A DNA stretch of 64,000 bases from Blastocatellia bacterium (GTDB lineage Bacteria > Acidobacteriota > Blastocatellia > UBA7656): NCBI GenBank assembly GCA_035258805.1, contig DATFWY010000099.1, forward strand, positions 5,357 through 69,356, written 5' to 3'. The stretch's first letter is position 1, and the number at the start of each line of letters is the position of its first letter. The notes beneath the pieces are model-generated. The model saw only the letters and a program-made list of their open reading frames with translations. It searched no databases and was not told the origin of the DNA. Shown one piece after another: positions 23,696 through 54,184 of this stretch. A program made the position numbers and the translations under genes.

Positions 23696-25471
23696 TTACT
23701 TCTTAGGCCACGGCTTGAAAGCATTGTCCAGTTGTTCCACGACTGGACCAAGAGCAGGAATATGCCGTCTCAAAACGGTTCTCATGTTGTTATCCTCGAT
23801 CCACTTTAAGCCGGTTTTAGTGTAAGTCTTTTCGTTGTAGTCAGTAGTAAAGAAGCGATCGCTTTGCAATCGACGAGAGGCCATGAGGATGAAAATGCGA
23901 AACGCGGTTTCGCTGAAGCCAAAACCCTCAGGCGGATCTTCGGCATACATCCCGACCATCAGGTCCACTTTGTTGATGTCGCCGTTGTACACACGTCTGA
24001 TCTGTTCCACCCATTCTTTATTGCTCGACAAGTCCTCGAACTTCTCTACCGGCTCCTTGTCGATAAGTTTGAGGAACTCGTTGTAGCGGGGGACACCACG
24101 TTCACGATCACGAAGTATATCCACGGTCGCCAAATCGATCGTCGGAGCATCCGTACGTTCCAGACGCTGCAAAAACCGCGGGTAATTGTGCAACTTGATC
24201 GCGCCCGGGTGCATTTGCCCGAACGAATAAAACAGATCCGCCATCGAGAACTTAGTCATAAGCTCGCGAGCGCGCTTTTCTGCAACGTCGGGCAGCGTGC
24301 GCTGGTCAACTACCTGGCCCGTGGAGAACGACCGAAAGCTAAAGTCGTCGGGCATCAGCGGGTGCATCCGGTACACTGCCACAAATTCTTCGGTGATCGA
24401 ATAAGGCGCAGCGTGGTGCTCGGCCTTCGAGCGACGGATGGTCAGCCAATTTGCATTCATCCCCGCTTCGACCGTTGGGTGCGCGACTATGGCAGGTGTC
24501 CACTCAATCGTATGAATCTTAGCCATCAGCGCGGCGTTTATCAGCCGGGCGCGATCGAAGAGTTCCTGGTCGGTCCAGGAAGCAAATTCAGAGCGGAGGC
24601 GTTCGGCGATTGCATTGTGCTCCAGGGTGAACAGCGTATGGAGCATCGCAAGTCCAACCCACCAGTTTCCGGTAACGCCAGAAATATCGACTCCACTGTG
24701 TGGATCAAGCGGAAGAAGGTTGTCGCTTCCAAGCTTGAGCTTTCCGTCGACGCCCAGGCGCACTCTTGTCTGAGTCTCGGGGTCGCTCCCGTAGATTTGC
24801 GAGCCATCCCACCAGTGAGTCTCGGTGTTGGTGTAGGTCGGCACCGGACTGGTTGAGCTGGGCGGTCGGGTCGGATCGTGGCGAGTACGGCGCACCTGCA
24901 TCGGTCGTTCAGGCCACGGATCGTCCCCGCTGAGAGGGATCTCCATTGGATCGTTTCTTTCGTTGTTCCCGTGGCTTATCCAGTCGTGTACTTCAAACTG
25001 GATCCATGCCGCCGCCAATAGATTGAGCGAAGTCGCCGGCTGAAACTCTTTGCGAGTCATTAATTCGAGGCTCACTGTTCGGGGGCTCGGAGTAAGCAGC
25101 GCGTCTTGATCCGGAATCACCCGATCCAGCGGGACGTTTCGACCAAAGCGGGCCCCGGCGCATCCCATCCTTGGCTGGTCCAAATCGTTATAGGTTCCGT
25201 CAACGGTGCGCGACGTCCGCTGCGGGACACCGGGTTTGCCCAATGGAGGCTGCTCAATGGATTCAATCTTCCCTGCGTCGTAAAGGTTGTCCTTTCTCAG
25301 CTTTTCGCGGATGCGGAAGACGCGCGCCAATCCTAGAAATACCGGGAGTTTATACCAGGGGATCCAGCCGGTGAATAACCCGGTAACTCGTCCAAAAGTA
25401 TTTGAAAATATGTTGGCCATCACGAGGTCCTCTGAAATGGCATTTTCGACCTGGACACGATAATCCCACAA
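23696..25471 (-). CDS. Animal-haem-peroxidase family protein, fatty-acid alpha-dioxygenase / linoleate diol synthase-like
   Basis: 591 aa. AAWIQFEVHDWISH closely resembles the distal-His block of plant alpha-dioxygenases (WIQFMIHDW). The rest matches An_peroxidase architecture. Confidence 0.75.
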   Translation of the reverse strand: MWDYRVQVENAISEDLVMANIFSNTFGRVTGLFTGWIPWYKLPVFLGLARVFRIREKLRKDNLYDAGKIESIEQPPLGKPGVPQRTSRTVDGTYNDLDQPRMGCAGARFGRNVPLDRVIPDQDALLTPSPRTVSLELMTRKEFQPATSLNLLAAAWIQFEVHDWISHGNNERNDPMEIPLSGDDPWPERPMQVRRTRHDPTRPPSSTSPVPTYTNTETHWWDGSQIYGSDPETQTRVRLGVDGKLKLGSDNLLPLDPHSGVDISGVTGNWWVGLAMLHTLFTLEHNAIAERLRSEFASWTDQELFDRARLINAALMAKIHTIEWTPAIVAHPTVEAGMNANWLTIRRSKAEHHAAPYSITEEFVAVYRMHPLMPDDFSFRSFSTGQVVDQRTLPDVAEKRARELMTKFSMADLFYSFGQMHPGAIKLHNYPRFLQRLERTDAPTIDLATVDILRDRERGVPRYNEFLKLIDKEPVEKFEDLSSNKEWVEQIRRVYNGDINKVDLMVGMYAEDPPEGFGFSETAFRIFILMASRRLQSDRFFTTDYNEKTYTKTGLKWIEDNNMRTVLRRHIPALGPVVEQLDNAFKPWPKK

Positions 25472-26390: not shown

Positions 26391-27212
26391 TCACCTACCA
26401 AAATAAAGCTTCAGCCAATCTGACCTCACCGCGGACCATCTGTACTTATCGCATTCCCGCTGCCCGCCAGCAGTTAGTTTTTGTGCGAGCAGTCCGTCTT
26501 CGAGCAACCTCGAAGCATTCTCCGCCAGCGCTCGGTAGTCCCTGCATCTAACAACGAGGCCACTTCTGCCGTGCTCCACGATGTAAGGAATCCCACCTGC
26601 ATCAGTGGTGACCACCGGCAAACCAGATGCAAACGCCTCAATTATAGAGCATGGCATATTGTCTATATCGGGACTGTTAAGATAAATGTCGGCAGAATCG
26701 TAGAGTGCATTCATCTGCGAGGGGGCGCCGCGATCGACACCCTTTAACGATTCTTTTGTTTCGGCGAATAAAACGAATGTCTCTGCGATAGAAGTTGATC
26801 GGAGTTGGTGTGTTCTCTCGAGCTGCGTCTTGCAGGGAAACTTCTCTTCGACTATCTGGCGGGCCGCGTTTGCCCATCTCTCGAGCTAGGGCGGGTTGAT
26901 TCAACAGGTAACTGATGCGCTGGGTCATTGCGTCATCGTCGTCCGATCGCACGAGATAACCCGTCTGACTATCCACGACGGCTTCACGCGCGCCGCCGAC
27001 GTCTGTTGCAACCACCGCCCGCGCTGCAGCCATGTATTCCAGAATCGAGTTGGAAAAACCTTCCGCCGTTGACGAAAACACGCATACACTGGAAACACCC
27101 AGGAGATCTCCAATTGACTTACATCGCCCACGAGAGGTAAGTAATCATCTTGATTTTGGTGGAAGTCGGGGCGGCCGTGGTCCGTGTCGAGAGGACCCGG
27201 ATAGCTCGACAT
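26391..27212 (-). pseudogene. Glycosyltransferase family 4 (GT4) C-terminal regions disrupted by frameshifts (at least two EX7E-containing segments)
   Basis: Three overlapping minus-strand ORFs (26391..26714, 26677..27081, 26925..27212) each carry GT4 C-domain sequence: LPLVGDVSQLE; FSSTAEGFSNSILEYMAAARAVVATDVGG; ARQIVEEKF; IAETFVLFAETKESLKGVDRG...SIIEAFASGLPVVTTDAGG. Apparent frame changes lie near 27180, 27085 and 26895. This is either genuine decay or homopolymer sequencing errors. Confidence 0.5.
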
Positions 27213-27981
27213 ATCTCAGTTCTTCTCCATTCTCTACGCACCTCAGCATAAGCCCACCCCTGCTCATATCGCCTCGACCAACAAAATCGATCGGAAAGCA
27301 AAGGCGATCAGAAAAAACATCGGCCAGTACGCTCGTATACTTGGATGTGGCGACGCTTCCGAGAAGCACGAGCTCGCAGCCTTCAGAAATTGATTTGGCG
27401 AGTTCTTGTGCATCGAGCTCGAGGGACTCACGGTACTTCGGATTCTGCTCATGAACTTCGACCTCTGCGATCTCCCTCAGCTGCTGAATCGTGAACATCT
27501 CTTCAGGCGGTAGAAGCCCTCTTCCCGGCGTCACAACCAGGGTACCAGGCAGCCCGGCCGGGGGCTGCGCGAACGCCTGTGAATACGCGAGCTTGCCACG
27601 AAAGTAAAGACCGCTCATAAACGTGAATATTGCTCCAAGACTAGCTCCATTATTTCGTAGCTCCATCGCCAGCGGAAACGCGCTGTGCTCTGACATGAGC
27701 ATCTGACCACGCTTGCCGCCGCAGAATGCCGGAGAAAGTATAAAAATACGATTTAGCATCTTTGATTTCAGGCTCTTCAGGTTAGCGGAAGTACTCCACA
27801 GGTAGTTTCGCGACTGTACCGTAGCTTGTCCAGTCTGCGGTACTTTATATCTGGTTTGACATTTGCACTGAGCAATTAACTCGGATGCAGGTCCTCCGAG
27901 CTGATTAGATGCGAGACGCGAGAGATGGGCCTTGTGTATCCGAAGCCTACAGAAGAGGAGACGCAAAGATGAAATCCGCAA
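27145..27981 (-). CDS. Hypothetical protein, possibly the N-terminal domain of the frameshifted GT4 gene
   Basis: The internal Met region MLNRIFILSPAFCGGKRGQ...FPLAMELRNNGA loosely resembles a GT4 N-terminal GG motif. No firm assignment. Confidence 0.3.
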   Translation of the reverse strand: MRISSLRLLFCRLRIHKAHLSRLASNQLGGPASELIAQCKCQTRYKVPQTGQATVQSRNYLWSTSANLKSLKSKMLNRIFILSPAFCGGKRGQMLMSEHSAFPLAMELRNNGASLGAIFTFMSGLYFRGKLAYSQAFAQPPAGLPGTLVVTPGRGLLPPEEMFTIQQLREIAEVEVHEQNPKYRESLELDAQELAKSISEGCELVLLGSVATSKYTSVLADVFSDRLCFPIDFVGRGDMSRGGLMLRCVENGEELRYVELSGSSRHGPRPPRLPPKSR

Positions 27982-28543
27982 AGAAAAAAAGAATTGCGAA
28001 AGGGCTTGTGGCAGGTCTCGTCGGCGGCTTGGCTGCGTCCTGGTTTATGAACAAATGCCAAACGATGTTGAGCAAGGCGATTCAACACGAGGAAAAGCCT
28101 CATGGCGGCCAATCAGTTCAGCCGGGCCCTGAGCACGGGGCCGCAGCTGAATTGGCAGAGCTCGGACTTGATGATCCCAGGGACAACGCCGCCGAACGAA
28201 CCGTCAACATCGTAGCCGCTAAGGTCTTCAATCACGAATTAACCAAGGACGAAAAGCACCTGGGTGGTGAGATTGCGCATTATGCGTTCGGGGCAACTAC
28301 CGGAGCGATTTATGGTGCGGCATCCGAGTTTATTCCAGAAGCAACCGTTGCGGCCGGATTACCGTTTGGCGCTGCGGTCTGGTTAATCGCCGATGAAATT
28401 TTGGTTCCGGCTCTTGGGCTGTCAAAGTTTCCGACGGAGTACCATTTATCGCAACATCGATATCATTCACGGCGCATTTGGTTTACGGCTTCACCACTGA
28501 TATGTTTCGAAGGGCAGTGCTTATCGCGCTGAGTGCCGCCTGA
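27969..28543 (+). CDS. DUF1440-like membrane protein with an apparent -1 frameshift near 28450
   Basis: Gly-zipper membrane segments (GLVAGLVGGLAAS; GATTGAIYGAASE). After KFPTEY the listed frame reads HLSQHRYHSRRIW. The alternative frame reads PFIATSISFTAHLVYGFTTDMFRRAVLIALSAA, which looks like the native C-terminus ending at TGA 28541..28543. The break falls at a CC/CCC homopolymer. Confidence 0.45.
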
Positions 28544-30317
28544 AGAACCTTTAGACGCACAACTCTTACACTCGGTGGGAGCATCAATATCAATGAATAA
28601 GTTTGAAGTTGCAGCTACGCTTAAAGAGATTGCAGCACTGATGCGAATTAAGGGCGAGGATCAGTTCCGCTGGCGAGCTTACGCAAGGGCCGCGCAGTCT
28701 GTTGCAGAAGTGAGCGGCGATTTCGGAGAGATCGTCGAAGAAAAGAAATTGACGCAGATCAAAGGCATCGGCGGCTCATTGGCCGGTCTGATTGAAGATC
28801 TCTATAAGACTGGACGATCATCGTTGCTCGAAAGGCTGCGAGAGGAATTACCCGAAGGCGTGTTGACTCTCTCTAAGATTCCAGGCCTGAACGTAAAGAA
28901 GATCCAGGCGCTTAATCGCGAACTGGGGATCAGCAGCATCAGCGATCTGAAGGCCGCGCTCGAAGCCGGCAAGTTGCGAAATGTGCCCGGTTTCGGCGCA
29001 AAGAGTGAAATCTCGCTTCGTGAAAAGATTGCTGGCTATGAAACCCGCGATGAACGGATTTTACTCCTGCACGCCCTTAGGACCGCCGATAGCATCCTTG
29101 AATATATGCGCAGCGCTGCAAACCTGCGGCGAGTCGATCTCGCGGGATCAGCACGACGCTGGAAGGAAACAGTCTCAAACATAAAACTCACCGGTAGTGT
29201 TGCGAGTGACCCTGAGAACGCTGTGAATCACTTCCTGAGCTTTCCTCCCATTACAAATATCGAGAAACATGAAAAGACCACCGCAACGGTAAAGTTAATG
29301 GAGGGGATCAGGGTTTCGTTTTCAGCAGTGACCTCGAACGAGTACTGGAATCTGCTCCATTCCGAAACCGGATCAAAAAGTCACGTAAGCCGAGTCCGCG
29401 AGCTCGCTCGGGAGAAGGGATTCGAGATCACGCCTACGAAGATGAAGGTGGCAGGCAAACGAACCCCACTAAGAATCACCAGCGAGACCGATATCTATAA
29501 GCATCTCGAAATGCAATACATTCCGCCCGAATTACGTGAAGATGAGGGTGAGATTGAGGACGCGTTAGCCGGCAGGATTCCCGACGATCTCGTACTTATC
29601 GACGACATCAAGGGTATGGTGCACTGTCATACAACGTTCTCAGACGGCCGAAACACAGTTGAGGAAATGGCCCTGGCCGCACAAGCAATGGGGATAAAAT
29701 ACATGACAATCACCGATCATTCACCGACGGCGCACTATGCAAGAGGCCTCGAGATTGATCGGCTAAAACTGCAATGGGACGAGATCAGCCGAGTCCAGGA
29801 AAAGGTTTCGATCAAGCTTCTGCGAGGAACCGAGTCGGACATTCTCCGGGATGGCGCACTCGACTATCCAGACAGCATCCTTGAAAAGTTCGACGTTATC
29901 ATCGCCAGCATTCACAACCGCTACAAACTCGACGAGGATGAAATGACCCGGCGGGTTATAAACGCCATGAAGAATCCAATGTTTAAGATTTGGGGACATC
30001 CGTTGGGAAGACTAGTCCAGCGGCGGCCTCCGATCGCGTGTCGCCTCGAAAAGATATTGGACGTCATTGCGGAGTCTGCAGCAGCAATCGAAATTAGTGG
30101 CGACCCCCACAGGCTCGATCTCGAGCCTAAATGGATTAAAGAAGCGCGCAAGCGATCACTCAAATTCGTAATCTCTACTGATGCCCATTCAACAGCAGAT
30201 CTGGAGAACTTAAGATTCGGAATCGGCATTGCGAGACGAGGCGGAGTCAGACGAGGCGAAGTCCTCAATACTCTGAGCTTCAAGTCGTTTCAGCAGTCGG
30301 TCAATCCGACAGTATGA
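28533..30317 (+). CDS. polX: DNA polymerase X family protein with C-terminal PHP phosphoesterase domain
   Basis: N-terminal HhH/pol-beta-like region (KIPGLNVKKIQAL, GFGAKSEIS). C-terminal PHP motif VHCHTTFSDGRNTVEEM...ITDHS. GTG start at 28533, and ATG MNKFEVA about 60 bp downstream is more likely. Confidence 0.85.
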   Translation: MPPEEPLDAQLLHSVGASISMNKFEVAATLKEIAALMRIKGEDQFRWRAYARAAQSVAEVSGDFGEIVEEKKLTQIKGIGGSLAGLIEDLYKTGRSSLLERLREELPEGVLTLSKIPGLNVKKIQALNRELGISSISDLKAALEAGKLRNVPGFGAKSEISLREKIAGYETRDERILLLHALRTADSILEYMRSAANLRRVDLAGSARRWKETVSNIKLTGSVASDPENAVNHFLSFPPITNIEKHEKTTATVKLMEGIRVSFSAVTSNEYWNLLHSETGSKSHVSRVRELAREKGFEITPTKMKVAGKRTPLRITSETDIYKHLEMQYIPPELREDEGEIEDALAGRIPDDLVLIDDIKGMVHCHTTFSDGRNTVEEMALAAQAMGIKYMTITDHSPTAHYARGLEIDRLKLQWDEISRVQEKVSIKLLRGTESDILRDGALDYPDSILEKFDVIIASIHNRYKLDEDEMTRRVINAMKNPMFKIWGHPLGRLVQRRPPIACRLEKILDVIAESAAAIEISGDPHRLDLEPKWIKEARKRSLKFVISTDAHSTADLENLRFGIGIARRGGVRRGEVLNTLSFKSFQQSVNPTV

Positions 30318-30350: not shown

Positions 30351-31355
30351 ATGACTCATGTTGAACGACTTCAAAAAACAGGGATCCGGCGAGTCGGGAG
30401 AAAAGGCCACTTCCGATATGTTGCCGCCGACGGCAGTAAGGTAACTCAATCGGATCTTGCTCGAATCGATGCACTTCGGCTTCCTCCGGCCTGGGCTGAA
30501 GTAGCCATCAATAGAGCCGCTGGTGGGATGCTCCAGGCCATCGGCAAAGACTGGCAATATGTCTACCACCAAAACCATGTAAAGAAGCGCCAACAGAAAA
30601 AATTCAACCGTCTGCTGAACTTTGGTCAGGCCGTTCCGAAGATGCGCCGAGTCGTGCGGCAGGACTTGAGAAAAAAGGATCTGGGACGCGAGCGCGTCAT
30701 GGCCTGTATCCTCCGAATATTGTCGACCTGTTTTATGCGTCCAGGGAGCCAGGTTTACGCGAATGAGAACGGAAGCTACGGTTTGGCTACGCTGCGCCCG
30801 AAGCACGTGCGAGTGCGAGGCGACGTCGTTGAATTCAACTTTCCCGGTAAACGACAAATCTCCCAACATCGCGAGCTAAAGGATCCTACAGTCGCCCGCG
30901 TAATTCGACAGCTTCTAAGGCGGCGCAACCACAGAGTTTTCAATTACGAAAACGGCGACGGTTTCGTCGATGTACGAAGAAGGGGAATTAATCAATACAT
31001 TCGAGAAGTGATGGGCGGTCCTTTTACTTCTAAAGACTTTCGGACGTGGGCCGGAACATTGGTTTGCGCGTGTGCGCTTGCGCGCGCCGGCTGCGAACCC
31101 CGAGAGCCTGCTCGAAGCAAGAAGAATAAAGTTGTTAAGGCGATAAAGGAGACATCGCAAATTCTCGGAAATACGCCGGCAGTTTGCCGGTCTGCGTACA
31201 TTTCACCTGAGATTCTGACTAGCTTTGATCGCGGGCATGTAATCGACCAGCACTTTGAGACTCTCGATGATCTGGTCAACCACCGCGGTGTGCATTTGCA
31301 TAATGCTGAGCGCGCTTTGCTGCGTTTGCTTAAAAGGAATGGCAAGCGCGCCTAA
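30351..31355 (+). CDS. DNA topoisomerase IB (eukaryotic/poxvirus-type)
   Basis: 334 aa. The N-terminus GIRRVGRKGHFRYVAADGSKV and the overall length match bacterial TopIB. A C-terminal catalytic Tyr region is present. Confidence 0.8.
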   Translation: MTHVERLQKTGIRRVGRKGHFRYVAADGSKVTQSDLARIDALRLPPAWAEVAINRAAGGMLQAIGKDWQYVYHQNHVKKRQQKKFNRLLNFGQAVPKMRRVVRQDLRKKDLGRERVMACILRILSTCFMRPGSQVYANENGSYGLATLRPKHVRVRGDVVEFNFPGKRQISQHRELKDPTVARVIRQLLRRRNHRVFNYENGDGFVDVRRRGINQYIREVMGGPFTSKDFRTWAGTLVCACALARAGCEPREPARSKKNKVVKAIKETSQILGNTPAVCRSAYISPEILTSFDRGHVIDQHFETLDDLVNHRGVHLHNAERALLRLLKRNGKRA

Positions 31356-43242: not shown

Positions 43243-44709
43243 TCACGCCAAAATCTCCCGCACCGCCTCCCCGTGCACGTCCGTCAGCCTAAAATGCCTC
43301 CCCTGAAACTTAAACGTGAGCCTCTTATGGTCCACGCCAAGACAATGCAGAATCGTAGCCTGCAAGTCATGCACGTGCACCGGATCCTTAACAATGTTGT
43401 ACGAGTAATCATCGGTCTCGCCGAATGTCAGACCTCGCTTGATCCCGCCTCCCGCGAGCCACATTGCAAAACATCGTGGGTGATGGTCGCGACCATAGTT
43501 GTTCTCAGTTAGCTTACCCTGACAGTAAACCGTTCGCCCAAACTCACCACCCCACACCACAAGCGTGCCATCCAGCATGCCGCGCTGCTTCAAATCAAGT
43601 ATCAGCGCCGCCGAAGCCTGATCTGTGCCTTTACACTGCAGAGCAATGTCGCGAGGCAAATCATTGTGTTGGTCCCAGCCTCGGTGGTACAGCTGGATGA
43701 ACCGAACGTTGCGCTCCGCCAGGCGCCGCGCAAGCAGGCAATTCGCGGCGTAAGTCCCCGGCTTCCGCGAATCTGGGCCGTACATCTCAAAGATATGTTC
43801 CGGCTCCTTCGAAAGATCCATCAAGTCTGGCACTGATGTCTGCATTCGATATGCCATCTCATATTGCTGGATTCGTGTATCGATCTCGGGGTCACCGTAT
43901 GATTCGGCTTTGATCTTATTCAAGCTCATCACTGCATCCAGCATCTGGCGTCTGGTCGTCTTGTTGATCCCGGGCGGATCGGCAAGATAAAGCACTGGCT
44001 CGCCGCTCCCGCGAAACCTGACTCCCTGATAGCTCGATGGCAGGAAACCTGCTCCCCATAAGCGCGAGAAAAGCGGTTGGTCCGTATTAATCGCATTGGC
44101 AACCGAGAGCAACACTACGAATGACGGCAGGTTTTGGTTTTCACTTCCTAACCCATAGCTCACCCACGATCCGAGACTTGGACGCCCGGGCTGTTGGCTC
44201 CCGGTTTGTATGAAGGTGATCGCCGGATCGTGATTGATCGCTTCGGTATTCATGCTTCTCACGATCGTAATTTCGTCGACGATTTTCGCGGTGTGAGGAA
44301 GAAGCTCACTGAGCCAGGATCCTGATTGCCCGTGCTGGCTGAATTTAAAAAGAGAGTTGACCACCGGCAGCGAGCTCTGCCCCGAAGTCATGCCCGTAAT
44401 TCGCTGACCCATCCGAACCGATGCTGGAAGCTCGGTACCGTGAAAGCGACTGAGCGCCGGCTTGTAATCGAACAGATCCATTTGTGAGGGCGCACCGGAC
44501 TGATGAAGGAAGATGACCCGTTTCGCCTTCGGGGCGAAGTGTGGAAGGCCGGTCAGTCCGCCAGTTTTCGGATCTCTGTCATTTTGAGTATCTGCAAACA
44601 CTGCCGGCTTAAGCAGTGAAGCGAATGCGGCGACACCAATGCCAGTGCTGGCAAGTCCAAAGAGTTGCCGCCGCGTCAGCGTGAGTTCGAGCTCCCGTTT
44701 GAGATCCAT
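43243..44709 (-). CDS. DUF1501 domain protein (sulfatase-like, Tat-exported)
   Basis: Tat motif TRRQLFGLASTGIGVAAFA. DUF1501 architecture. Sits 23 bp downstream of the DUF1553 gene, the usual pairing. Confidence 0.85.
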   Translation of the reverse strand: MDLKRELELTLTRRQLFGLASTGIGVAAFASLLKPAVFADTQNDRDPKTGGLTGLPHFAPKAKRVIFLHQSGAPSQMDLFDYKPALSRFHGTELPASVRMGQRITGMTSGQSSLPVVNSLFKFSQHGQSGSWLSELLPHTAKIVDEITIVRSMNTEAINHDPAITFIQTGSQQPGRPSLGSWVSYGLGSENQNLPSFVVLLSVANAINTDQPLFSRLWGAGFLPSSYQGVRFRGSGEPVLYLADPPGINKTTRRQMLDAVMSLNKIKAESYGDPEIDTRIQQYEMAYRMQTSVPDLMDLSKEPEHIFEMYGPDSRKPGTYAANCLLARRLAERNVRFIQLYHRGWDQHNDLPRDIALQCKGTDQASAALILDLKQRGMLDGTLVVWGGEFGRTVYCQGKLTENNYGRDHHPRCFAMWLAGGGIKRGLTFGETDDYSYNIVKDPVHVHDLQATILHCLGVDHKRLTFKFQGRHFRLTDVHGEAVREILA

Positions 44710-44732
44710 ATAAAGATAGATCAGTCCTTAGA

Positions 44733-47700
44733 TCACTCTCTGGTTATTGTCTCGTCCAGATTCAAGATGGCACTCGCTAAGATCGTCCAGGCAGCGAGCT
44801 CAGACGGGTTGAGACGTGCATCACATTTCGATTCGCCGACTGACAACAAATCCGACACGGCTTTCTTATCTCCACGGTAGCGGCTCAGTTGTTGGTCGAA
44901 CAAAACCTGGAGTACCTGGCGCTCCTTCGCGTTCGGAAGTCTTGATGTTGCTAGTCGAAAAGCAAAATTTATGCGGCTCTGAACATCTCTTCCGCCCTCA
45001 GTCATCGTGCGCTGCGCTAAGTGTCGTGCCGCTTCGATGTAAGTGGGGTCGTTCATCAGAACGAGAGCTTGTAATGGAGTATTGGTTACCGCTCGACGCG
45101 CGGTGCATTTCTCACGATCCGGTGCATCAAAGGTGACAAGCTGAGGTGGTGGAACCGTTCGCTTCCAGAATGTGTACATGCTCCGGCGGTACAGATCTCG
45201 GCCGGTGCTCTGCGTGAACGATTGAGCGGAGAACCCGTCGCCGAACGCCAGCTCATCCCATAATCCCTTCGGCTGGTAAGGAAATACGCCAGGTCCACCG
45301 ATATCCGTGTTAAGCAATCCGCTTATTGCTAAGGCGTTATCGCGAACGGTTTCCGCAGAGAGTCGCATTCGCGGTCCACGTGCGAGCAGCCGGTTCTCTG
45401 GATCCTTCGCCAACAAATCCGGACTGACGAGTGATGATTGCTGATAAGCTGCAGAAGTTACAATCAGGCGCTGCATCGATTTCACATCCCAGCCGTTGCG
45501 AATGAACTCCGTTGCGAGCCAATCCAGCAGTTCCGGATGGAACGGCGGCTCACCCTGCATGCCGAAGTTCTCAGAGGTCTTTACGATTCCGGTGCCAAAA
45601 TACATCTGCCAGTAACGGTTGACGGTGACGCGCGCCGTCAAAGGGTGATCTGGTGATACAAGCCACTTTGCCAGGCCTAGTCGATTGATGGGTGCGTTTT
45701 GCGGGTACGACGAAAGCACGGCGGGGACGCCAGGAGAGACCTTCTCATTCTGGTTGCGGTAATCGCCTCGACCAAGAACAAATGTCTCCCGCGGCTTCTC
45801 GAGTTCGGACATTATCATTACGGTTGGAATCGTCTTTTCCAGAGACTCTTTTTGTCGTCGCAGGTCCTTCAAATCTGCATAGGCTTCTCGGAATGCAGCC
45901 GGCGCTTCATACGTTAAGAAGTAGTCGCGGACCCGCGCATCGTCTTCCTTTGATCTCTTTCCAGACACGCCAGCAAGAATCGTCTGAATCGGGTACCGGA
46001 TCGCTAGCTCCTCAGTTTCGCTGTTATCGAGCGATCTCTTGTACAGCCGTAAATCATCAATGTTCCCGCGGAATGGTCCTCCTAAGTTCTTGTTGCCAAT
46101 CTGCAGCTCGGCATCGTTCACAATCGTGCCCGAGAGACTGTCCTGAGCCACATGGGTTTTCGCGAGCTTGCCGTTTAGGTAAAGGTGCAGACCGGCCGCT
46201 TTCCCGGAGCCGTCATAAGTCAAAGTAATGTGATACCAGTCTCCCAGCGTAAGCCGCTCAGTCGTTTTTATTTGGATGCTGTTATCGGGCCAGTTAGAGG
46301 TTAATCTGATAGTCAGATGCGCGGCGCGTTTTTGAATACCTACGAGCTCGTGATCATCCAAAAGAAACTCATAACCTCGCCGAGTTGAAGGGTTGTCAAT
46401 TTTCTGAAGAACTGCGATGGGAGTATTGCCGTTCCCCCGCATCCAAAACGCGATAGTAAATTGATCCTTCTCAGCAAAGTTTCCAACGCGGCCAAAACTT
46501 ATATGTGAGTAGCCATCGAAGCTGATGGACTTTCCGACTTGTCCGGCACCGAACGTCGGGTCGCCACTCAGAGTCCGGCCCTGCTGATAGCGGCCAGACA
46601 CGTCCGAGAGACTGCCGTCTAACTCGTAGTGGGCAGTGATTCCACTTACGAGTGACTTTGCCGATTTGTCAACAAATCCCTTCTCCCATTGTTCCTGAGA
46701 CGCCACAACTTCTTTTCCGTCCAGCGCAGTCTCCTTGCCTTTTATGGCTGAACTCAACTGGTCTGATTTGGTTTTCTGCTCGGATGTTGGAAGCGCCAAA
46801 AAGGGCTTTGCATTACCTGTTCTTCCATCGAGCCCCTCTTCGGAAATTGTGTTGAAGAATGCGAAGAATTGATAGAACTCTTTCTGCGTGATCGGATCGT
46901 ATTTGTGGCCATGACAACGCGCGCAACCCAAGGTCGTGGCCATCCATACGTTTGAGGTCGTTTCAACGCGATCGACAACATATTCGACCTGGTACTCTTC
47001 TGGTATAGCTCCGCCTTCAAAATTGATCATGTGATTTCTGTTGAACCCGGAAGCTATCTGTTGCTCGACAGTCGCATTCGGTAAGAGATCGCCTGCAAGC
47101 TGCTCGATTGTGAACTGATCGAATGGTAGATTTCGGTTGAATGCACTGATGACCCAATCGCGCCACCGCCACATATCACGATGACTGTCGATGTGATAGC
47201 CATGCGTATCGGCGTATCGCGCCAGATCAAGCCACTGCATGGCCATTCGCTCACCATAATGCGATGAGCTCAGCAGTCTATCGACCTGCTTCTCGTACGC
47301 GTCAGGCGCGGTGTCCTTCAAAAAAGAATCTATCTCTGCCGGCGTCGGCTGTAGGCCGGTCAAATCGAGGCTAACGCGGCGAAGCAGCGTCGCCATATCG
47401 GCTTGTGGTGACGGGTTCAGACCCTCGCGCTCAAGTCGTTCCAGGATGAAATTATCGATCGGGTTGCGAAGCCACGCGGTGTTTGCAACTCGTGGAGGCT
47501 CAACGCGCTTTGGAGGCAGGTAGGCCCAATGCGTTTCCCATTTAGCGCCTTCATCAATCCAGCGTCGGAGAAGCTCTATCTGATTGGCGGTGAGGCTTCG
47601 ATCAGAGCCTGGAGGCGGCATGCGCATCTCTGGTTGAGTTGCGGTGATACGTTTGATCAAACGGCTGTTCGAAGAATCGCCAGGACTTATTACGCCAGCC

Positions 47701-47909
47701 TTGGCGAATGCGCCCTGCTTGGTGTCAAAACGAAGGCCAGCCTTTCGCTGCCTGTCGTCGGGACCGTGGCATGCGAAACAGGTGTCAGAGAGGATCGGGC
47801 TGATATCGCGATTGAAGTCGACGGAAGGTTGTTTCTTATCCTGTGCGAGGACTGCACAGCAGATCGCCGTTACAACGATTCCAACCAGCGATATCTGTCG
47901 TCTCGGCAT
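44733..47909 (-). CDS. PSCyt1/DUF1549/DUF1553 (PSD1) protein with central concanavalin/LamG-like domain
   Basis: CFACHG (CxxCH) close to the N-terminus. DUF1549 and DUF1553 blocks (CARCHGHKYDP). Probable start MPRRQISLVGIVVTAICCAVLAQD at 47909. The track ORF extends to 48044. Confidence 0.85.
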   Translation of the reverse strand: MPRRQISLVGIVVTAICCAVLAQDKKQPSVDFNRDISPILSDTCFACHGPDDRQRKAGLRFDTKQGAFAKAGVISPGDSSNSRLIKRITATQPEMRMPPPGSDRSLTANQIELLRRWIDEGAKWETHWAYLPPKRVEPPRVANTAWLRNPIDNFILERLEREGLNPSPQADMATLLRRVSLDLTGLQPTPAEIDSFLKDTAPDAYEKQVDRLLSSSHYGERMAMQWLDLARYADTHGYHIDSHRDMWRWRDWVISAFNRNLPFDQFTIEQLAGDLLPNATVEQQIASGFNRNHMINFEGGAIPEEYQVEYVVDRVETTSNVWMATTLGCARCHGHKYDPITQKEFYQFFAFFNTISEEGLDGRTGNAKPFLALPTSEQKTKSDQLSSAIKGKETALDGKEVVASQEQWEKGFVDKSAKSLVSGITAHYELDGSLSDVSGRYQQGRTLSGDPTFGAGQVGKSISFDGYSHISFGRVGNFAEKDQFTIAFWMRGNGNTPIAVLQKIDNPSTRRGYEFLLDDHELVGIQKRAAHLTIRLTSNWPDNSIQIKTTERLTLGDWYHITLTYDGSGKAAGLHLYLNGKLAKTHVAQDSLSGTIVNDAELQIGNKNLGGPFRGNIDDLRLYKRSLDNSETEELAIRYPIQTILAGVSGKRSKEDDARVRDYFLTYEAPAAFREAYADLKDLRRQKESLEKTIPTVMIMSELEKPRETFVLGRGDYRNQNEKVSPGVPAVLSSYPQNAPINRLGLAKWLVSPDHPLTARVTVNRYWQMYFGTGIVKTSENFGMQGEPPFHPELLDWLATEFIRNGWDVKSMQRLIVTSAAYQQSSLVSPDLLAKDPENRLLARGPRMRLSAETVRDNALAISGLLNTDIGGPGVFPYQPKGLWDELAFGDGFSAQSFTQSTGRDLYRRSMYTFWKRTVPPPQLVTFDAPDREKCTARRAVTNTPLQALVLMNDPTYIEAARHLAQRTMTEGGRDVQSRINFAFRLATSRLPNAKERQVLQVLFDQQLSRYRGDKKAVSDLLSVGESKCDARLNPSELAAWTILASAILNLDETITRE

Positions 47910-48271
47910 GTCCTTTTCATGTCGGGAGAGTGCAGAAAAGGAAGGTCCCTCCCGGCCACGCAAGGTTACGCCACATATGAGCAGATCGCAATCGCACTGA
48001 TGATGCTTATAGTTTCTGTCTATATCCCTCATCGTGCCTGCCATTTCGGTTCATACACACCTAGTTAGTCTTGATGCGGTAGCCTGCAGGCGAGAGGGCC
48101 AAGCTGTTTTGTACGGCATGACGAGCGAGAACGAATAAATTCGTTACTACGTGACAGCACACGGCACTCGAATTTACCTGTCTTTAATCCTACAATGTCG
48201 CCGTCAAAGCCGGACAGTGCGGGCACAAGCAATAAAACTTATTCCGAGCTTGAGGACTAAACAGAACTACG

Positions 48272-49105
48272 ATGGAGTCGATGATGAAAAAGAGAGTGTT
48301 CCTCCTGCCGTTATTTTTTCTCATCATGAACCTGGAAGCTCAGGCTCAGGACCGCATCGAGCAGTGGAAAGGCAAAACGATAATGGTCTTTACTCCGCAT
48401 CCGGACGACGATCTGTTTGGCTGCGGAGGAACGCTGGCGTTGCTGGCTAAAAACGGCAACAAGATCATCATTGTGATTTATACCAACGATAATAAAGGTT
48501 CTTTTGATCTCGAGATGACCAGCGAACGCCTAGCCCGCATTCGCAAGGCCGAGGAAGAGGCTGCGATGGAAGTACTCGGAGTTCCGAAGGCGAACATCTA
48601 TTGGATGGGTTACGACGATGGTGAACTTGAATACGCTGAGCCCAAGGCATTGTGCGGACAGGCGACCAAGCTGATTCGACAACACCGCCCCGACGTAGTC
48701 TTCAGCATCGATCCAGGCGAATGGTTTGAGCGCTGGCACAAGACAGATCACCGAATGGCCGCGTTCAACACCGCTGATGCAATTCGTGCGGCGGAGTTTC
48801 ATCTTTATTATCCCGAGCATTTATTGGTGGACGGCTTGAAGCCTTACAAAGTACCTCTGATGATGTTTTATTATGCCGCCAACGATGCGAATTACTGGGT
48901 CGACATAACAGAAGTAGCCGAACAGAAGATCAAGGCGGTGACGAAGCACGTCAGTCAGTTCGAGCCGTCAATCAACAAGTATCGCGCTGATTGGGATTCG
49001 CAGGATCTGGCAAAGCTGGTTGAATACCTCAAGGGCCGCGCAACAAAGAAGGACGGCAAATACGTTGAGGCATTTCGTCGCGCGACCAGTTTCAATCCGC
49101 AATGA
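48272..49105 (+). CDS. PIG-L/LmbE family N-acetylglucosaminyl deacetylase
   Basis: MVFTPHPDDDLFGCGGTLA, the HPDDD zinc-binding motif of LmbE-like deacetylases. Signal-peptide-like N-terminus. Confidence 0.8.
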   Translation: MESMMKKRVFLLPLFFLIMNLEAQAQDRIEQWKGKTIMVFTPHPDDDLFGCGGTLALLAKNGNKIIIVIYTNDNKGSFDLEMTSERLARIRKAEEEAAMEVLGVPKANIYWMGYDDGELEYAEPKALCGQATKLIRQHRPDVVFSIDPGEWFERWHKTDHRMAAFNTADAIRAAEFHLYYPEHLLVDGLKPYKVPLMMFYYAANDANYWVDITEVAEQKIKAVTKHVSQFEPSINKYRADWDSQDLAKLVEYLKGRATKKDGKYVEAFRRATSFNPQ

Positions 49106-49162
49106 ATTGAATTCCTGAGCCAGGCCGAAGCGATTTCTTGCCAGGTTCACCCGGAACATCAG

Positions 49163-49951
49163 ATGGCTGAATTTGATCGAGCACATCGCATTTTCGTCAG
49201 CTATATCGACAAATCGCGCGAATACTATCTCGCTCGTGGCTATGCGAATCCTTACCAGTGGGCCCACTATGAGGATGCCCCGTTCGCTACGTTGATGAAA
49301 CCGCTCAGAGAATGCCGAGTAGGTCTGGTCACTACCGCAGCTTTAAACGAAGAGACTGCGAAGATAAAACGAGTTTACAGTTCTACCACAACTCCGCCGC
49401 CGGATGAGATGTACACAGAACACCGGTCCTGGGACAAGAAAGCGACACACACTCGCGACGTAGAGTCTTTCTTACCTGTTCGTCGGGTATCCGAGTTCGC
49501 TGCCGACGGACGAATCGCGAGCATTTCGCCTCGTTTTTACGGCGCGCCCACTGACTTTAGTCAGCGGCGCACGATCGAAGGGTATGCGCCGTCGATTCTC
49601 GATCTATGTCGCGCTGACTGTGTGGATGTTGTGCTCCTCGTTCCTTTGTGACCTGTTTGTCATCAGACCGTGAGTCTGGTATCTCGGCATCTTGAGACAA
49701 ACGGCATACCGACGGTGGTGATCGGGTCGGCGAAAGACATCGTCGAGCAATGTGGTGTGGCGCGATTTGTATTCAGCGACTTTCCGCTTGGCAATTCTTG
49801 CGGGAAACCGTACGACGCGACGATGCAAAGGGCGATTGTTGGAATGGCGCTTGACCTCGTGGAGACGGCCCGATTTCCACGGACTACAGTACAGACTCCG
49901 TTTGCGTGGGATTCCACGGGCGAGTGGCGGGTCGAATATATGAAGCTTTAA
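49163..49951 (+). CDS. Selenoprotein B homologue of the glycine/sarcosine/betaine/D-proline reductase family (GrdB/PrdB-like). In-frame UGA (Sec) at 49649..49651.
   Basis: The track ORFs 49163..49651 and 49670..49951 are in the same frame, separated only by TGA. Read-through gives ...VDVVLLVPL-U-PVCHQTVSLVSRHLETNGIPTVVIGS... As recalled, this parallels the PrdB active-site block ...VDAVLLTAG-U-GTCHRSAVIVQR.IEEAGIPTIIVA. An upstream RVGLVTTAAL block matches KVALVTAAG. A stem-loop follows the TGA. Confidence 0.7.
49655..49702 (+). promoter_or_regulatory. Putative bacterial SECIS stem-loop starting 4 nt downstream of the UGA codon
   Basis: gtttgtc(49655-61)...gacaaac(49696-702) is a perfect 7-bp outer stem. 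An inner hairpin cagac-cgtga-gtctg lies within a 48-nt structure. Confidence 0.5.
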
Positions 49952-50665: not shown

Positions 50666-52405
50666 TCACGCTTCATACAAATCCACCGCCGTCTGTCCCC
50701 TCGCAAAACGCTGCGCAGTCTGTGCCGCTGACTGACTACCCGCTCGCTTTCTCGCATCAGTCGCCCAACGGCTCAAACCGATCAACAGCTGGTTACGCGC
50801 CGGATGGCCCTCACACAATTTCCACTCGTCAAAAACAAACCTCAATGTGTGCACAAGATTCCAGCCGTTGTCGTCTTTGAGAATCGATTGGCCCATCTCC
50901 GACAACAGGCGATTGCCTGAATACCCGGAGTTCAAATACTCGCGTGTGTGCCTGCCAACTTCGCGTACCTGGACCGTCTCAATTGAATCAAGAACGGTCC
51001 GCAAAGCCGTGTCTTCATCTGGCGCATCCGATTTTGTGGCCGCTAGCGGATCGGTCAGAGAACGCGGAGTAATGTTGAGCCATCGATCGCTGAAAAATTG
51101 CCACGCAGCGTGATAGAGAGCCTTCGCGCCAATCTTGAACCCGCCGTACCGATATGCGGTTCGAACTGATGACGAGACTATCAACTCCTGACTAAGGCTG
51201 CCCCATCCCGGGTTGAGGTTCACTGGTGTCCGCGCCATTCGATCAGCGGCCAATAGAACCAACGTTGTTACAATCCGCTCAATCCCAACGCCTGCCTTGA
51301 GAGCATTCGAAATCGCATTGAACGTCTGGCTCAAATCCCCACTTACCAGACCTCTGGCGATGGCGTCCTCATCGTACGCAGTTCCGTCAGCGGCGGGAGC
51401 ATCGTCCAGCTCCTGGAGGAACGCGTCGATCGGTTCAAACATCTTCATCGCAGCTAGGCGGAGTTCTTCCGGAGCATCGCGACCTCTCCCGAGGATCTTT
51501 GCAGCAAGGTTGCAGACCAGTTCTTCCGAATTATCCCAGCCGAATTCCTCCAGCAATTCTGCCAGGAATTCGAAAAGCGGAAGGTTTTGAGTATGGCCTA
51601 AGAAAAAGGATTCGAGCGCACACTCATAGAGCAGCGGAAAAATCTCAGCATCGTGTCCACCAAGACGTCGAGCGGTGATCAAACATTTCTCGATCCCCTC
51701 CGGCGCCTTATCCGCAGTGAATACATGAATCCAATTTGCAAGCTTCTCCCAGGTAGTCGGAGGCGGCAACGGCTCAACTGCCGGGCGGTCTCCTGCAGTA
51801 CCGGAAGCACCGGTCGCCGCAATCATCAACGGAATCAGCCGGTCGTCAGGCGCGTAGTGACGCGCAACCTTGACCCCGTTAACCATCATCGCCAGCTCGC
51901 GCCCCGCTTCGTTTGGGCCACGTCCAGTGGCAACGTGTCTGCCGAGATGCCTAACAACAAGCTTCAGCGTGTCCTTCTCCGACACTCCTTTGGCCAGCAT
52001 GATGGCGATGGCTTTAGACAGCGTCCAGTTATCTGCGCTTAAAAGGCCTTCTTTTAGCAGGAGGAAATGCGCATCTTTGCGCCTGGATCCGCCGCTGCTC
52101 ACATCGATATAGATCGAGCCATCGCAAACCTCAACAGGAAATGTGTCGAGATCATCGCAGCCTCCGGTGAAGCAGCCGCCGCCTTTCATGTCGTAGCTCC
52201 ATCCGTGCCAGTCACAAGTAAGAACGCCGTTGCGGACTCGTCCACGTGTCAATGGATATCCCATATGCGGGCACTGGTTATCTGTGGCATAGATGTCGCC
52301 CTTGTGTTGAAAAAGCGCGATGCTGCGGCCGTCGACTTTGACGGCTTTTGGAGTGCCTTCGGGCACATCTTTGATTTCCGCTACCCTAACAAAATTATTC
52401 GACAT
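50666..52405 (-). CDS. Rieske [2Fe-2S] domain protein with large C-terminal helical domain of unknown function (paralogue 1)
   Basis: CPHMGYPLTRG...(17)...CDWHGWSYD is the CxH...CxxH Rieske motif. About 450 aa of unassigned all-alpha sequence follows. About 50% identical to the adjacent gene. Confidence 0.75.
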   Translation of the reverse strand: MSNNFVRVAEIKDVPEGTPKAVKVDGRSIALFQHKGDIYATDNQCPHMGYPLTRGRVRNGVLTCDWHGWSYDMKGGGCFTGGCDDLDTFPVEVCDGSIYIDVSSGGSRRKDAHFLLLKEGLLSADNWTLSKAIAIMLAKGVSEKDTLKLVVRHLGRHVATGRGPNEAGRELAMMVNGVKVARHYAPDDRLIPLMIAATGASGTAGDRPAVEPLPPPTTWEKLANWIHVFTADKAPEGIEKCLITARRLGGHDAEIFPLLYECALESFFLGHTQNLPLFEFLAELLEEFGWDNSEELVCNLAAKILGRGRDAPEELRLAAMKMFEPIDAFLQELDDAPAADGTAYDEDAIARGLVSGDLSQTFNAISNALKAGVGIERIVTTLVLLAADRMARTPVNLNPGWGSLSQELIVSSSVRTAYRYGGFKIGAKALYHAAWQFFSDRWLNITPRSLTDPLAATKSDAPDEDTALRTVLDSIETVQVREVGRHTREYLNSGYSGNRLLSEMGQSILKDDNGWNLVHTLRFVFDEWKLCEGHPARNQLLIGLSRWATDARKRAGSQSAAQTAQRFARGQTAVDLYEA

Positions 52406-52432: not shown

Positions 52433-54184
52433 CTAATCTTCAAACGCCTCCACCGTTGTTCTTCCCTCCGCAAAGCGCATCGCGGTGTTAGTCGCAGATC
52501 CGCTGTTCTTGTTCGTTCGAATATCAGTAGCGTAACGCGCGAGCCCCACAAGCAACTGGTACCGCGCAGGATGAACGCTCTCTGACTTACTTAACAGCTC
52601 CCACTCCTCAAACACCGTGCGCAGCGTCGGTAAAACCTGGATGTTGGTGTCATCCCACAGCATCGATCGTCCAATTTCGTGCGCCAGGCGATCACCTGAG
52701 TATCCGGCATTCAGATAACCTAAGACCTGCGCGCCGATCTCCTGAACGTTAAGGGACGCGATTGATTTGAGAATTGTTCGCACCCCAGTATCTTCGTCGG
52801 CTACTTCGAGCCTGGTCGCATCGAGCGGTTCGGACAAAGGCCGAAGCGGTATATTAAGCCAGCGATCGGAGAACATCTGCCAGGCCGCCTGGAATGTCGC
52901 TTTTGCCGCCACCAAAACTCCGCCGTTTCGCTTAGCGGTACGCAGTGACGCTGCAAGGTTGAGTTCCATCGTCAGTGGTCCCCACCCCGCATCGACGTTC
53001 ACCGGCGTGCGAGCCATCCGATCCGCAGCAAGAAGTACAAAGCTAGTGATCAAGCGATCCAAACTCACGCCTTCTTTGAGAGCACCTGTAACAGCCTCAA
53101 ACGATTTCTGAATGTTTCCGCTAAGCAGCGCGCGAACCAAACCATCTTCGTCGTGATCGGGCTGGCCCGATGAGTAATCGCTGGACTCGATCGCCGGAAC
53201 AGAAGCCGCCATCAATTGAACGGCGTCTCGAAGAAAGCGTTCGGGCTCGCCTCGGCGACGGCCAATAAGTTTTGCGCCGAGATTGAAGACTACTTCGGAC
53301 GATCGCTCCCAGCCGAAGCTCTCGACGGCTTCAGCCAGGTAACCGAGCGCGAGCAGGTTATCTCCGTAACCCAGAAAGTGCGGTTCTACCGCACATTCGT
53401 ATAGCAATCGAAGAATCTTGTCTTGATAATGCAGATTGTGCGCTGTGAAGAGGCAGCGCTCTATCCTGCCCGACTGACCATCGTGAGAAAACATCCGCGT
53501 CCATTTATCTATGCTTTCCCAGGACACCGATCCAGGCATGGGCACCACGTTGAGGCGTTCAGCGGATTTCCCTGCAACCGAGCAGGCAGCCGTCGCCAAA
53601 ACCATCAGCCGATCGGCGTCTTGATAACGGCGCCCGACCTTGAGGCCGTTGATCAATCTTGAAAGCTCCGAGCCTCCTTCCGCATCTTCATCGCTTGCAA
53701 TGCGTCTGCCTAGGTGTCGGAGGATCATTTGCACGATCTCTTCCTCAGGAACATTGCCTCTGAGCAGCAGAGCGATGGCTTTTGAAATAGTCCAACGATC
53801 TTCGCTCAGCAGCCCCTCCCAGAGCAGGCGAAGGTGTTCGTCTCGGCGTTTGTACTGGAGATCACCGACATTAATCCAGACAGCACCATCGCGTACGTCC
53901 ACCGGAAAAATCTGAAGATCGTCACATTCCTTGTTGAAGCATCCGCCGCCTTCTAAATCGAAACTCCGTCCGTGCCAGTCGCAGGTGAGGATGCCATGAC
54001 GAATGGCGCCTCGGGTCAACGGGTAACCCATGTGAGGGCACTGGTTGTCGGTGGCGTGAATCCTGCCATCGACGTTGAAAAGCGCAATCGTGCGTCCCTG
54101 GTTGAGTTTTACTGCTTTAGCTTCACCTGGAGGAATCTCGCTCAGGCCTGCGACGCGTATCCATTCCGAGATAGGTTTGACCAC
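52433..54184 (-). CDS. Rieske [2Fe-2S] domain protein with large C-terminal helical domain of unknown function (paralogue 2)
   Basis: CPHMGYPLTRG...CDWHGRSFD Rieske motif, collinear with 50666..52405. Shared blocks include LLAADRMARTPVN and FSDRWLNI. Confidence 0.75.
   Translation of the reverse strand: MVKPISEWIRVAGLSEIPPGEAKAVKLNQGRTIALFNVDGRIHATDNQCPHMGYPLTRGAIRHGILTCDWHGRSFDLEGGGCFNKECDDLQIFPVDVRDGAVWINVGDLQYKRRDEHLRLLWEGLLSEDRWTISKAIALLLRGNVPEEEIVQMILRHLGRRIASDEDAEGGSELSRLINGLKVGRRYQDADRLMVLATAACSVAGKSAERLNVVPMPGSVSWESIDKWTRMFSHDGQSGRIERCLFTAHNLHYQDKILRLLYECAVEPHFLGYGDNLLALGYLAEAVESFGWERSSEVVFNLGAKLIGRRRGEPERFLRDAVQLMAASVPAIESSDYSSGQPDHDEDGLVRALLSGNIQKSFEAVTGALKEGVSLDRLITSFVLLAADRMARTPVNVDAGWGPLTMELNLAASLRTAKRNGGVLVAAKATFQAAWQMFSDRWLNIPLRPLSEPLDATRLEVADEDTGVRTILKSIASLNVQEIGAQVLGYLNAGYSGDRLAHEIGRSMLWDDTNIQVLPTLRTVFEEWELLSKSESVHPARYQLLVGLARYATDIRTNKNSGSATNTAMRFAEGRTTVEAFED

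Follow-up and report, generated by a model that had tools for sequence, protein, structure and literature searches.

We analyzed a 64-kb stretch of DNA (64,000 nucleotides of contig DATFWY010000099.1, hereafter called the window, to which all coordinates refer) that harbors on its plus strand a gene interrupted by an in-frame TGA. Two open reading frames (ORFs), 49163..49651 (162 aa, with an ATG start) and 49670..49951, lie in the same frame and are joined by a single TGA at positions 49649-49651, exactly as described in an earlier note made from the sequence alone. If the TGA is read as selenocysteine (Sec), the complete gene, 49163..49951, comprises 262 codons including Sec163, followed by a TAA stop, and would encode a stand-alone protein resembling PrdB. 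The read-through junction translates as VDVVLLVPL-U-PVCHQTVSLVSRHLETNGIPTVVIGS, the predicted Sec-containing peptide being VVLLVPL-U-PVCHQTVSLVSR. The UGA is followed by a C (UGA-C context) and opens a UxxC motif, U163-P-V-C166, which the earlier note had also recognized and in which Cys166 (codon 49658..49660) would be the resolving cysteine. In an alignment of 51 sequences, P164, V165, C166, H167 and Q168 were invariant, and a third cysteine, Cys213 (codon 49799..49801), located in a conserved D-F-P-L-G-N-x-C-G loop, was nearly so. R175, L177, E178, P183 and T184 are among the other residues that are conserved 3' of the UGA. Since both Cys166 and Cys213 are kept, the suggestion that this might be a "Cys-free ancestor-like form" has to be abandoned; forms with Cys in place of Sec simply occur in other lineages. 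Cys213 itself is probably not essential, because an alanine replaces this third cysteine of the GNPCG loop in the acyl-coenzyme A (acyl-CoA) synthetase fusion proteins described below. Scans for a promoter and a terminator around the gene yielded nothing informative. As the comparative data below indicate, we conclude that 49163-49951 is one genuine selenoprotein gene with a single 262-residue product.

The joined sequence was searched against 5.8 billion proteins, which returned 6979 relatives. Full-length homologues (about 290 aa, 51-68% identical) cover the entire query, and every one of them carries a cysteine at the TGA column (LVPL-C-PVCHQT), as expected for a Sec codon. All of the closest relatives, at 80-99% identity, are entries of 162 aa ending at the TGA column, and tblastn matches run across the TGA, from residue 1 to residue 262. 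We then compared the codons themselves in 84 loci, of which 80 came from reference genomes and 3 from soil metagenome contigs, the window being the last. At the aligned position, 48 loci have TGA and the remaining 36 have TGC or TGT, a distribution far beyond chance, and protein conservation carries on 3' of it in all of them. The TGA forms belong to about five phyla and were found in Blastocatellia, in two metagenome-assembled genomes (MAGs) labelled Clostridia, in many Syntrophaceae, Smithella and Thermodesulfobacteriota, and in Acidimicrobiia, Dehalococcoidia and Gammaproteobacteria. The Cys forms were found in Bradyrhizobium, Belnapia, Afipia, Nitrobacter, Chloroflexia, Burkholderiales and others. 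The motif around the codon, (U/C)-P-V-C-H-Q, is invariant, so that a pseudogene, a sequencing error and a split gene can all be excluded. Additionally, independent assemblies agree, P0007 for example being 99% identical.

A profile search against 1.84 billion representatives gave 2304 matches at an E value of 1e-3, 1068 at 1e-10 and 176 at 1e-30. The PrdB-like family thus amounts to about 2,300 cluster representatives at 50% identity; it is abundant in oceans and soils, with Sec as well as Cys members. Among the best 150 representatives, some 50 cover the N- or the C-terminal part only and break at the Sec column, and because of this, misannotation of the family as fragments is common. The prediction that automatic callers would split the gene was thus borne out by the 162-aa fragments found in the databases.

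Directly downstream of the UGA, we identified a hairpin at 49662..49680 that we consider to be the core of the Sec insertion sequence (SECIS). It consists of a 7-bp stem (AUCAGAC/GUCUGGU) and an apical loop, CGUGA (49669-49673), which starts 17 nt after the UGA, and it is embedded in the codons for H-Q-T-V-S-L-V. According to the literature, such a small loop with a G is a hallmark of bacterial SECIS elements (PMC1088965). The earlier note had proposed a longer, 48-nt stem-loop starting 4 nt after the TGA. This structure is present as well (49655..49702), with GUUUGUC at 49655-49661 pairing with GACAAAC at 49696-49702 and enclosing an inner cagac/gtctg hairpin. On its own, the 25-nt hairpin core folds with -7.3 kcal/mol (z -2.15), while the 48-mer folds with -14.8 kcal/mol (z -2.3), 6 of 200 shuffled sequences folding equally well; an arbitrary 81-nt stretch was unremarkable (z -0.35). 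Since the folding energy of a single sequence was not decisive, we turned to a comparative analysis. Folding of single sequences is indeed only mildly informative here, whereas comparison provides strong evidence.

The hairpin (A/G)YCAGAC-CGUGA-GUCUGRU is common to nearly all TGA forms and is 93.6% paired across 40 distinct Sec-form sequences. Pair 15-31 varies between CG, UG and UA among the Sec forms, and pair 18-28 changes from GC to AU in three Sec-form sequences from Dehalococcoidia and Pseudomonadota. In 34 Cys forms encoding the same peptide, pairing drops to 79.7%, pair 19-27 being broken in 28 and pair 16-30 in 14 of the 34. The choice of codons points in the same direction. Although the GC content at third codon positions spans 0.09-0.94 among the 48 Sec forms, their codons +6 to +9 are almost fixed as ACC (46/46), GTG (45/47), AGT (47/47) and CTG (43/48), and the mean synonymous-codon entropy is 0.51 bits in the hairpin codons versus 1.47 outside. 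Such a dip is missing from the 36 Cys forms (1.07 in the hairpin versus 1.01 outside), which favor GTC and AGC codons at hairpin positions. We therefore conclude from these codon data that RNA-level selection on the hairpin acts only where the codon is UGA.

The outer stem behaved differently. It is seen intact only in the window, its nearest relative, a soil contig (L001), having one mismatch and one G-U pair, and other Sec forms lengthen the hairpin in another way, through pairs 11-35 and 12-34. Thus, the earlier proposal of a SECIS-like element downstream of the TGA stands for the inner part but not for the outer stem: the predicted functional SECIS is the inner 19-nt hairpin and not the 48-nt stem-loop. 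The outer stem, which is not conserved family-wide, may stabilize the recoding element. Four Sec forms of Thermodesulfobacteriota (L007:10503-10517, L009, L012 and L022) lack the standard hairpin and harbor a register-shifted one at columns 20-34 after the TGA, either CCGUCA-GUC-UGACGG or CCGUGA-GUC-UCACGG. The two versions of this CCGUSA-GUC-USACGG element differ by a compensatory G/C swap, and GU is again found in the apical loop.

A complete SECIS-type hairpin also still folds in some Cys forms, from Bradyrhizobium and a Pseudomonadota MAG (L043:10451-10495, L056:10451-10495 and L063:10490-10534), and the serine at position +8 is still encoded by AGY in nearly all Cys forms. These hairpins may be "fossil" SECIS elements, which would suggest that the Cys forms were derived from Sec ancestors.

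We next asked to which protein family the product belongs. The best match among curated models was TIGR04483 (D-proline reductase PrdB, NCBIfam), with an E value of 6.4e-28 over residues 41-247 of the protein and 20-232 of the 238 positions of the model. The score of 97.8 bits is, however, far below the equivalog cutoff of 300. The models for GrdH, GrdF and GrdB as well as TIGR01918 matched with E values of 1e-7 to 1e-5, all under cutoff (NF040795, E 1e-7; TIGR01918, E 3.5e-6 and 26.3 bits versus a cutoff of 65.45), and Pfam GRDB (PF07355) gave 13.2 bits versus a cutoff of 22. Since the scores fall under all curated cutoffs, we conclude from these searches that the protein is a homologue of PrdB and GrdB that lies outside every curated PrdB or GrdB family. 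The assignment to the PrdB/GrdB family made in the earlier note is hence right as to homology but not as to membership. A search of PDB sequences found no relative. In an AlphaFold2 model of a 65%-identical Cys homologue (P0001; predicted local distance difference test score, 88.9), the CxxC motif is located at the N terminus of a helix, after a beta-strand.

The genomic surroundings also differ from those of the characterized reductases. No prd, grd or sel gene was detected among the ORFs of at least 150 aa that we scanned in the window, in agreement with the earlier observation that partner genes are lacking nearby. Of 67 upstream and 69 downstream neighbors from family loci that we classified with Pfam, none was PrdA, PrdC, PrdH, GrdA, GrdC or GrdE, and no proline racemase adjoins the gene in the window or in the surveyed family loci. 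No neighbor is family-wide, none being conserved beyond 14 of 82 loci. Because this survey of 82 loci revealed neither pyruvoyl nor grd/prd partners, we conclude that standing alone is a property of the whole PrdB-like family.

These data bear on the possibility that the gene encodes a genuine B subunit of D-proline reductase (or of glycine or betaine reductase), with PrdA or GrdE and the electron-transfer proteins encoded elsewhere in the genome. Homology to TIGR04483 over the full length would fit this idea, as would the names in use: JGI and NCBI pipelines call the homologues "D-proline reductase (dithiol) PrdB" or "glycine reductase", and the literature places the family under PrdB. Nevertheless, we consider it improbable. 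Besides the failed cutoffs and the missing partners, true PrdB is active only as a complex with PrdA, whose gene lies in the same cluster, and it is inactive when its Sec is changed to Cys (U151C; PMC11229817), whereas the family studied here abounds in Cys forms from aerobes such as Bradyrhizobium. Cys forms also make up the majority of database entries, which suggests that Cys would suffice in this family. Indeed, this abundance of natural Cys forms argues for a chemistry that is unlike, or less demanding than, that of PrdB.

Taken together, we hold with high confidence that 49163-49951 encodes one 262-residue Sec protein of the stand-alone PrdB-like family, whose UGA would be recoded through the hairpin at 49662-49680. 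Several observations weigh against this reading. We found neither selA, selB, selD nor a tRNA-Sec gene when examining the 64 kb of the window and the fetched loci; for tRNA-Sec, ARAGORN was run on the window and on 43 related Sec-form loci and detected none. Furthermore, the peptide alone dictates much of the hairpin, as illustrated by the pairing retained in the Cys forms, and covariation is seen at two pairs only. Finally, Rfam at gathering thresholds gave no match in the whole window, which is only weakly telling since the hairpin is short and family-specific. Acidobacteria have been reported as a phylum that carries selenoproteins (PMC1794560).

One could also imagine that the UGA is recoded as Cys, by a tRNA(Cys) that resembles tRNA-Sec (selC*) or an acidobacterial allo-tRNA acting as suppressor, possibly still with the help of the hairpin and SelB. 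Such selC* tRNAs(Cys) occur in deltaproteobacteria and other anaerobes, and allo-tRNAs of Acidobacteria can suppress nonsense codons (Mukai et al. 2017, PMC5389517). Moreover, as natural Cys forms are common, a cysteine at this position would give a working protein. However, TGC or TGT would be the simpler solution if Cys were intended, and 36 loci do use these codons. The SECIS-type constraint persists across about five phyla, the majority of them not known to have selC*, selenoproteome surveys all treat the family as a Sec family, and no selC*-like tRNA or allo-tRNA was found in the window. Altogether, we regard the insertion of Cys as quite unlikely. Even less credible is that the TGA is a true stop leaving a pseudogene or a split pair, in which a 162-aa N-terminal protein would be followed by a separate C-terminal one of 93 aa, initiated at GTG 49670: although gene callers yield exactly these two products and no Sec machinery is visible in the window, the six codons from the TGA to this GTG, which encode P-V-C-H-Q-T, the first five residues invariant and the sixth nearly so, would all be lost, 48 loci from about five phyla have their TGA in one and the same column and show purifying selection before and after it, the RNA-level constraint is restricted to TGA forms, and independent assemblies such as that of P0007 agree.

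Returning to the Sec protein, we propose the following mechanism. During translation, the UGA at 49649-49651 would be read as Sec, with the mRNA hairpin at 49662-49680 recruiting SelB loaded with Sec-tRNA(Sec) and the choice of codons holding the shape of the hairpin within the H-Q-T-V-S-L-V coding sequence. In the folded protein, a Rossmann-like alpha/beta domain would carry Sec163 and Cys166 as a U-x-x-C redox pair at the N terminus of a helix. After attack of the selenolate on a substrate or a disulfide, Cys166 would resolve the adduct, giving a selenenylsulfide that a thiol system would then reduce. The enzyme would work without a pyruvoyl PrdA/GrdE partner and would hence not be a subunit of D-proline or glycine reductase.

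Hints to the substrate came from fusions and neighbors in other lineages. Among the matches of the profile search were proteins of about 810 aa that combine an AMP-forming acyl-CoA synthetase with a PrdB-like domain in one chain. Two of them, P0124 (805 aa) and P0272 (813 aa), come from different sources, are 34% identical and collinear, and both keep the motif NCPVCHQ; P0123 and P0270 are further fusions of this type, in the Cys form. Additionally, genes for family III CoA-transferases were found near the PrdB-like gene in 11 loci from at least five phyla, genes similar to ADP-forming CoA ligases lie directly downstream of it in eight Syntrophaceae loci, and AMP-binding neighbors occur in two loci. 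Because of these fusions and of the CoA-enzyme neighbors in other phyla, the data suggest that the substrate would be a carboxylic acid handled as a CoA thioester. In a separate observation, a serine/threonine kinase domain is apparently fused to the C-terminal two-thirds of a PrdB-like domain in a 480-aa protein from a Pseudomonadota MAG (P0136; MEM7376707.1). This is a single sequence, and an artefact of assembly or gene calling is possible.

The window gene has a different neighbor. A PIG-L/LmbE-family deacetylase gene (48272..49105, plus strand; Pfam PF02585, E 4.9e-28) is located 57 nt upstream of the selenoprotein gene. The same LmbE-type neighbor, 84-98% identical, is present in L001, L003, L006 and L033 but not in L004, L005 or other phyla. 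It is thus possible that the deacetylase is an operon partner within the clade of the window only, where it would take the place of the CoA enzymes. The spacer between the two genes measures 57 nt in the window (49106-49162) versus about 265 nt (345-609) in L001, whose sequence is 85% identical; this difference reflects an intergenic insertion or deletion in one or the other.

We tentatively propose that the family labelled "PrdB" in surveys would not be a subunit of D-proline reductase but a self-sufficient Sec/Cys reductase whose substrate is a carboxylic acid activated with CoA. An acyl-CoA synthetase or CoA-transferase, either fused or neighboring, would make the thioester, which would replace the pyruvoyl activation by PrdA/GrdE, and the window gene would be an acidobacterial soil version accompanied by an LmbE-type deacetylase. 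Since the window gene's own neighbors are not CoA enzymes, its substrate is deduced by borrowing from other lineages, which speaks against this proposal, and we regard it as possible but doubtful.

Other genes of the window deserve a brief description. Two tandem paralogues of about 580 aa, 50666-52405(-) and 52433-54184(-), are 48% identical and harbor an N-terminal Rieske [2Fe-2S] domain, their remaining roughly 480 residues having no Pfam match; they adjoin the selenoprotein gene in the close relative L001 too. The 591-aa product of ORF 23696-25471(-) is a bacterial relative of the haem peroxidases of animals (PF03098, E 1e-109). A PolX-type DNA polymerase (HHH, pol-beta thumb and PHP) is encoded at 28533-30317(+), followed by a eukaryotic-type topoisomerase IB at 30351-31355(+). 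The DUF1440, PolX and topoisomerase IB genes are consecutive and in one frame, with only TGA stops between them, an arrangement that looks coincidental. Two TGA-split frames sought as a proxy for Sec use were rejected. The first, 868-2106(+), looks like a non-coding shadow, and the second, 26680-28044(-), is an unrelated glycosyltransferase remnant. In the latter region, 26680-27144(-) lies in frame after the TGA of a 278-aa ORF (27145-27981(-)), corresponds to an apparent C-terminal part of a family-1 glycosyltransferase (EGFSNSILEYMAAARAVVATDVGGAREAV...) and is probably a gene remnant. Finally, 43243-48044(-) encodes a PSCyt1/PSCyt2/PSD1 (DUF1549/DUF1553) protein of 1103 aa, beside a DUF1501 protein. 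Pairs like this one are typical for both Planctomycetes and Acidobacteria, in line with the inferred taxonomy.

Our findings have consequences for annotation. The gene should be called as one 262-residue selenoprotein, whereas it now appears as two fragments, and many pieces of the same family, 162 aa or roughly 120 aa long, are found in public collections. The names "PrdB", "D-proline reductase" and "glycine reductase" are probably wrong for the stand-alone family, because the protein falls short of the curated cutoffs and a pyruvoyl partner was never found. The family, which is extended here into soil Acidobacteriota-like bacteria, is among the most abundant selenoprotein families of the surface ocean and has been called "proline reductase PrdB" in surveys for twenty years. 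The recurrent links to CoA-activating enzymes offer a concrete start toward the substrate of a very common enzyme.

Compared with known recoding elements, the hairpin resembles bacterial SECIS elements (Escherichia coli fdhF type; consensus of Zhang and Gladyshev) in that it lies within the coding sequence, directly 3' of the UGA, and has a small G-containing loop, C-G-U-G-A. Unlike other bacterial SECIS elements, it has a family-specific sequence, is short (7 bp) and falls largely within a conserved peptide; its role in SelB binding is predicted. As for the protein, it shares with GrdB, GrdF and GrdH (PF07355, TIGR01918) a distant homology in the C-terminal half and a Sec at the equivalent position, where it starts a UxxC. 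However, it is about 260-290 aa long instead of about 430 aa and has no GrdA, GrdC or GrdE partners nearby. Moreover, a UxxCxxC motif is listed for GrdB (PMC13188914), and the motif of the window protein, U-P-V-C-H-Q-T, lacks the third Cys at +6.

The likeness to clostridial PrdB (TIGR04483; C. sticklandii and C. difficile) is closer. Indeed, both show near full-length homology, a UxxC motif that begins with Sec (given for PrdB by both PMC2398784 and PMC13188914) and a size of about 26-29 kDa, and both probably use a nucleophilic selenolate together with a resolving Cys. Nevertheless, the window protein harbors an extra conserved N-terminal segment, SYIDKSREYY...NPYxWA. Additionally, natural Cys variants are common in its family, unlike in PrdB with its inactive U151C variant, and the family is found in aerobic soil and ocean bacteria rather than in Stickland fermenters.

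The closest counterpart is a set of marine selenoproteins. In the Sargasso Sea selenoproteome (Zhang, Fomenko and Gladyshev 2005), "Proline reductase PrdB" (UxxC) was the third most abundant selenoprotein family, with 42 Sec sequences, and the Global Ocean Sampling (GOS) selenoproteome (Zhang and Gladyshev 2008) lists 235 Sec and 110 Cys sequences under this name. The "PrdB" label has also been applied to proteins of Anaeromyxobacter, Geobacter and Olavius symbionts. One entry of the 2005 supplement, AACY01093821, reads "...DAALLVPLuPVCHQTVGLVARHLESNGIPTV..." and is 57% identical to the window protein (E 1e-72, 164 aa), and the GOS supplement contains 86-93 occurrences of UPVCH(Q). In the literature, we found no study that separates the stand-alone family from clostridial PrdB or tests its function, and no named stand-alone "PrdB-like" or "GrdB-like" family. 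The active site LLVPL-U-PVCHQT...RHLExNGIPTV, the UxxC motif and the Sec/Cys dichotomy are the same, and on these grounds we conclude that the window family is the family published as "Proline reductase PrdB" selenoproteins. It is thus not new, and the idea of a newly found orphan has to be dropped. The published label implies a D-proline reductase, which the evidence presented here does not support. The published sets derive from marine plankton, whereas the window is of a soil Acidobacteriota-like bacterium whose closest named MAGs are Blastocatellia, and the clade of the window lacks a C-terminal helix of about 30 residues and is paired with an LmbE-type deacetylase.

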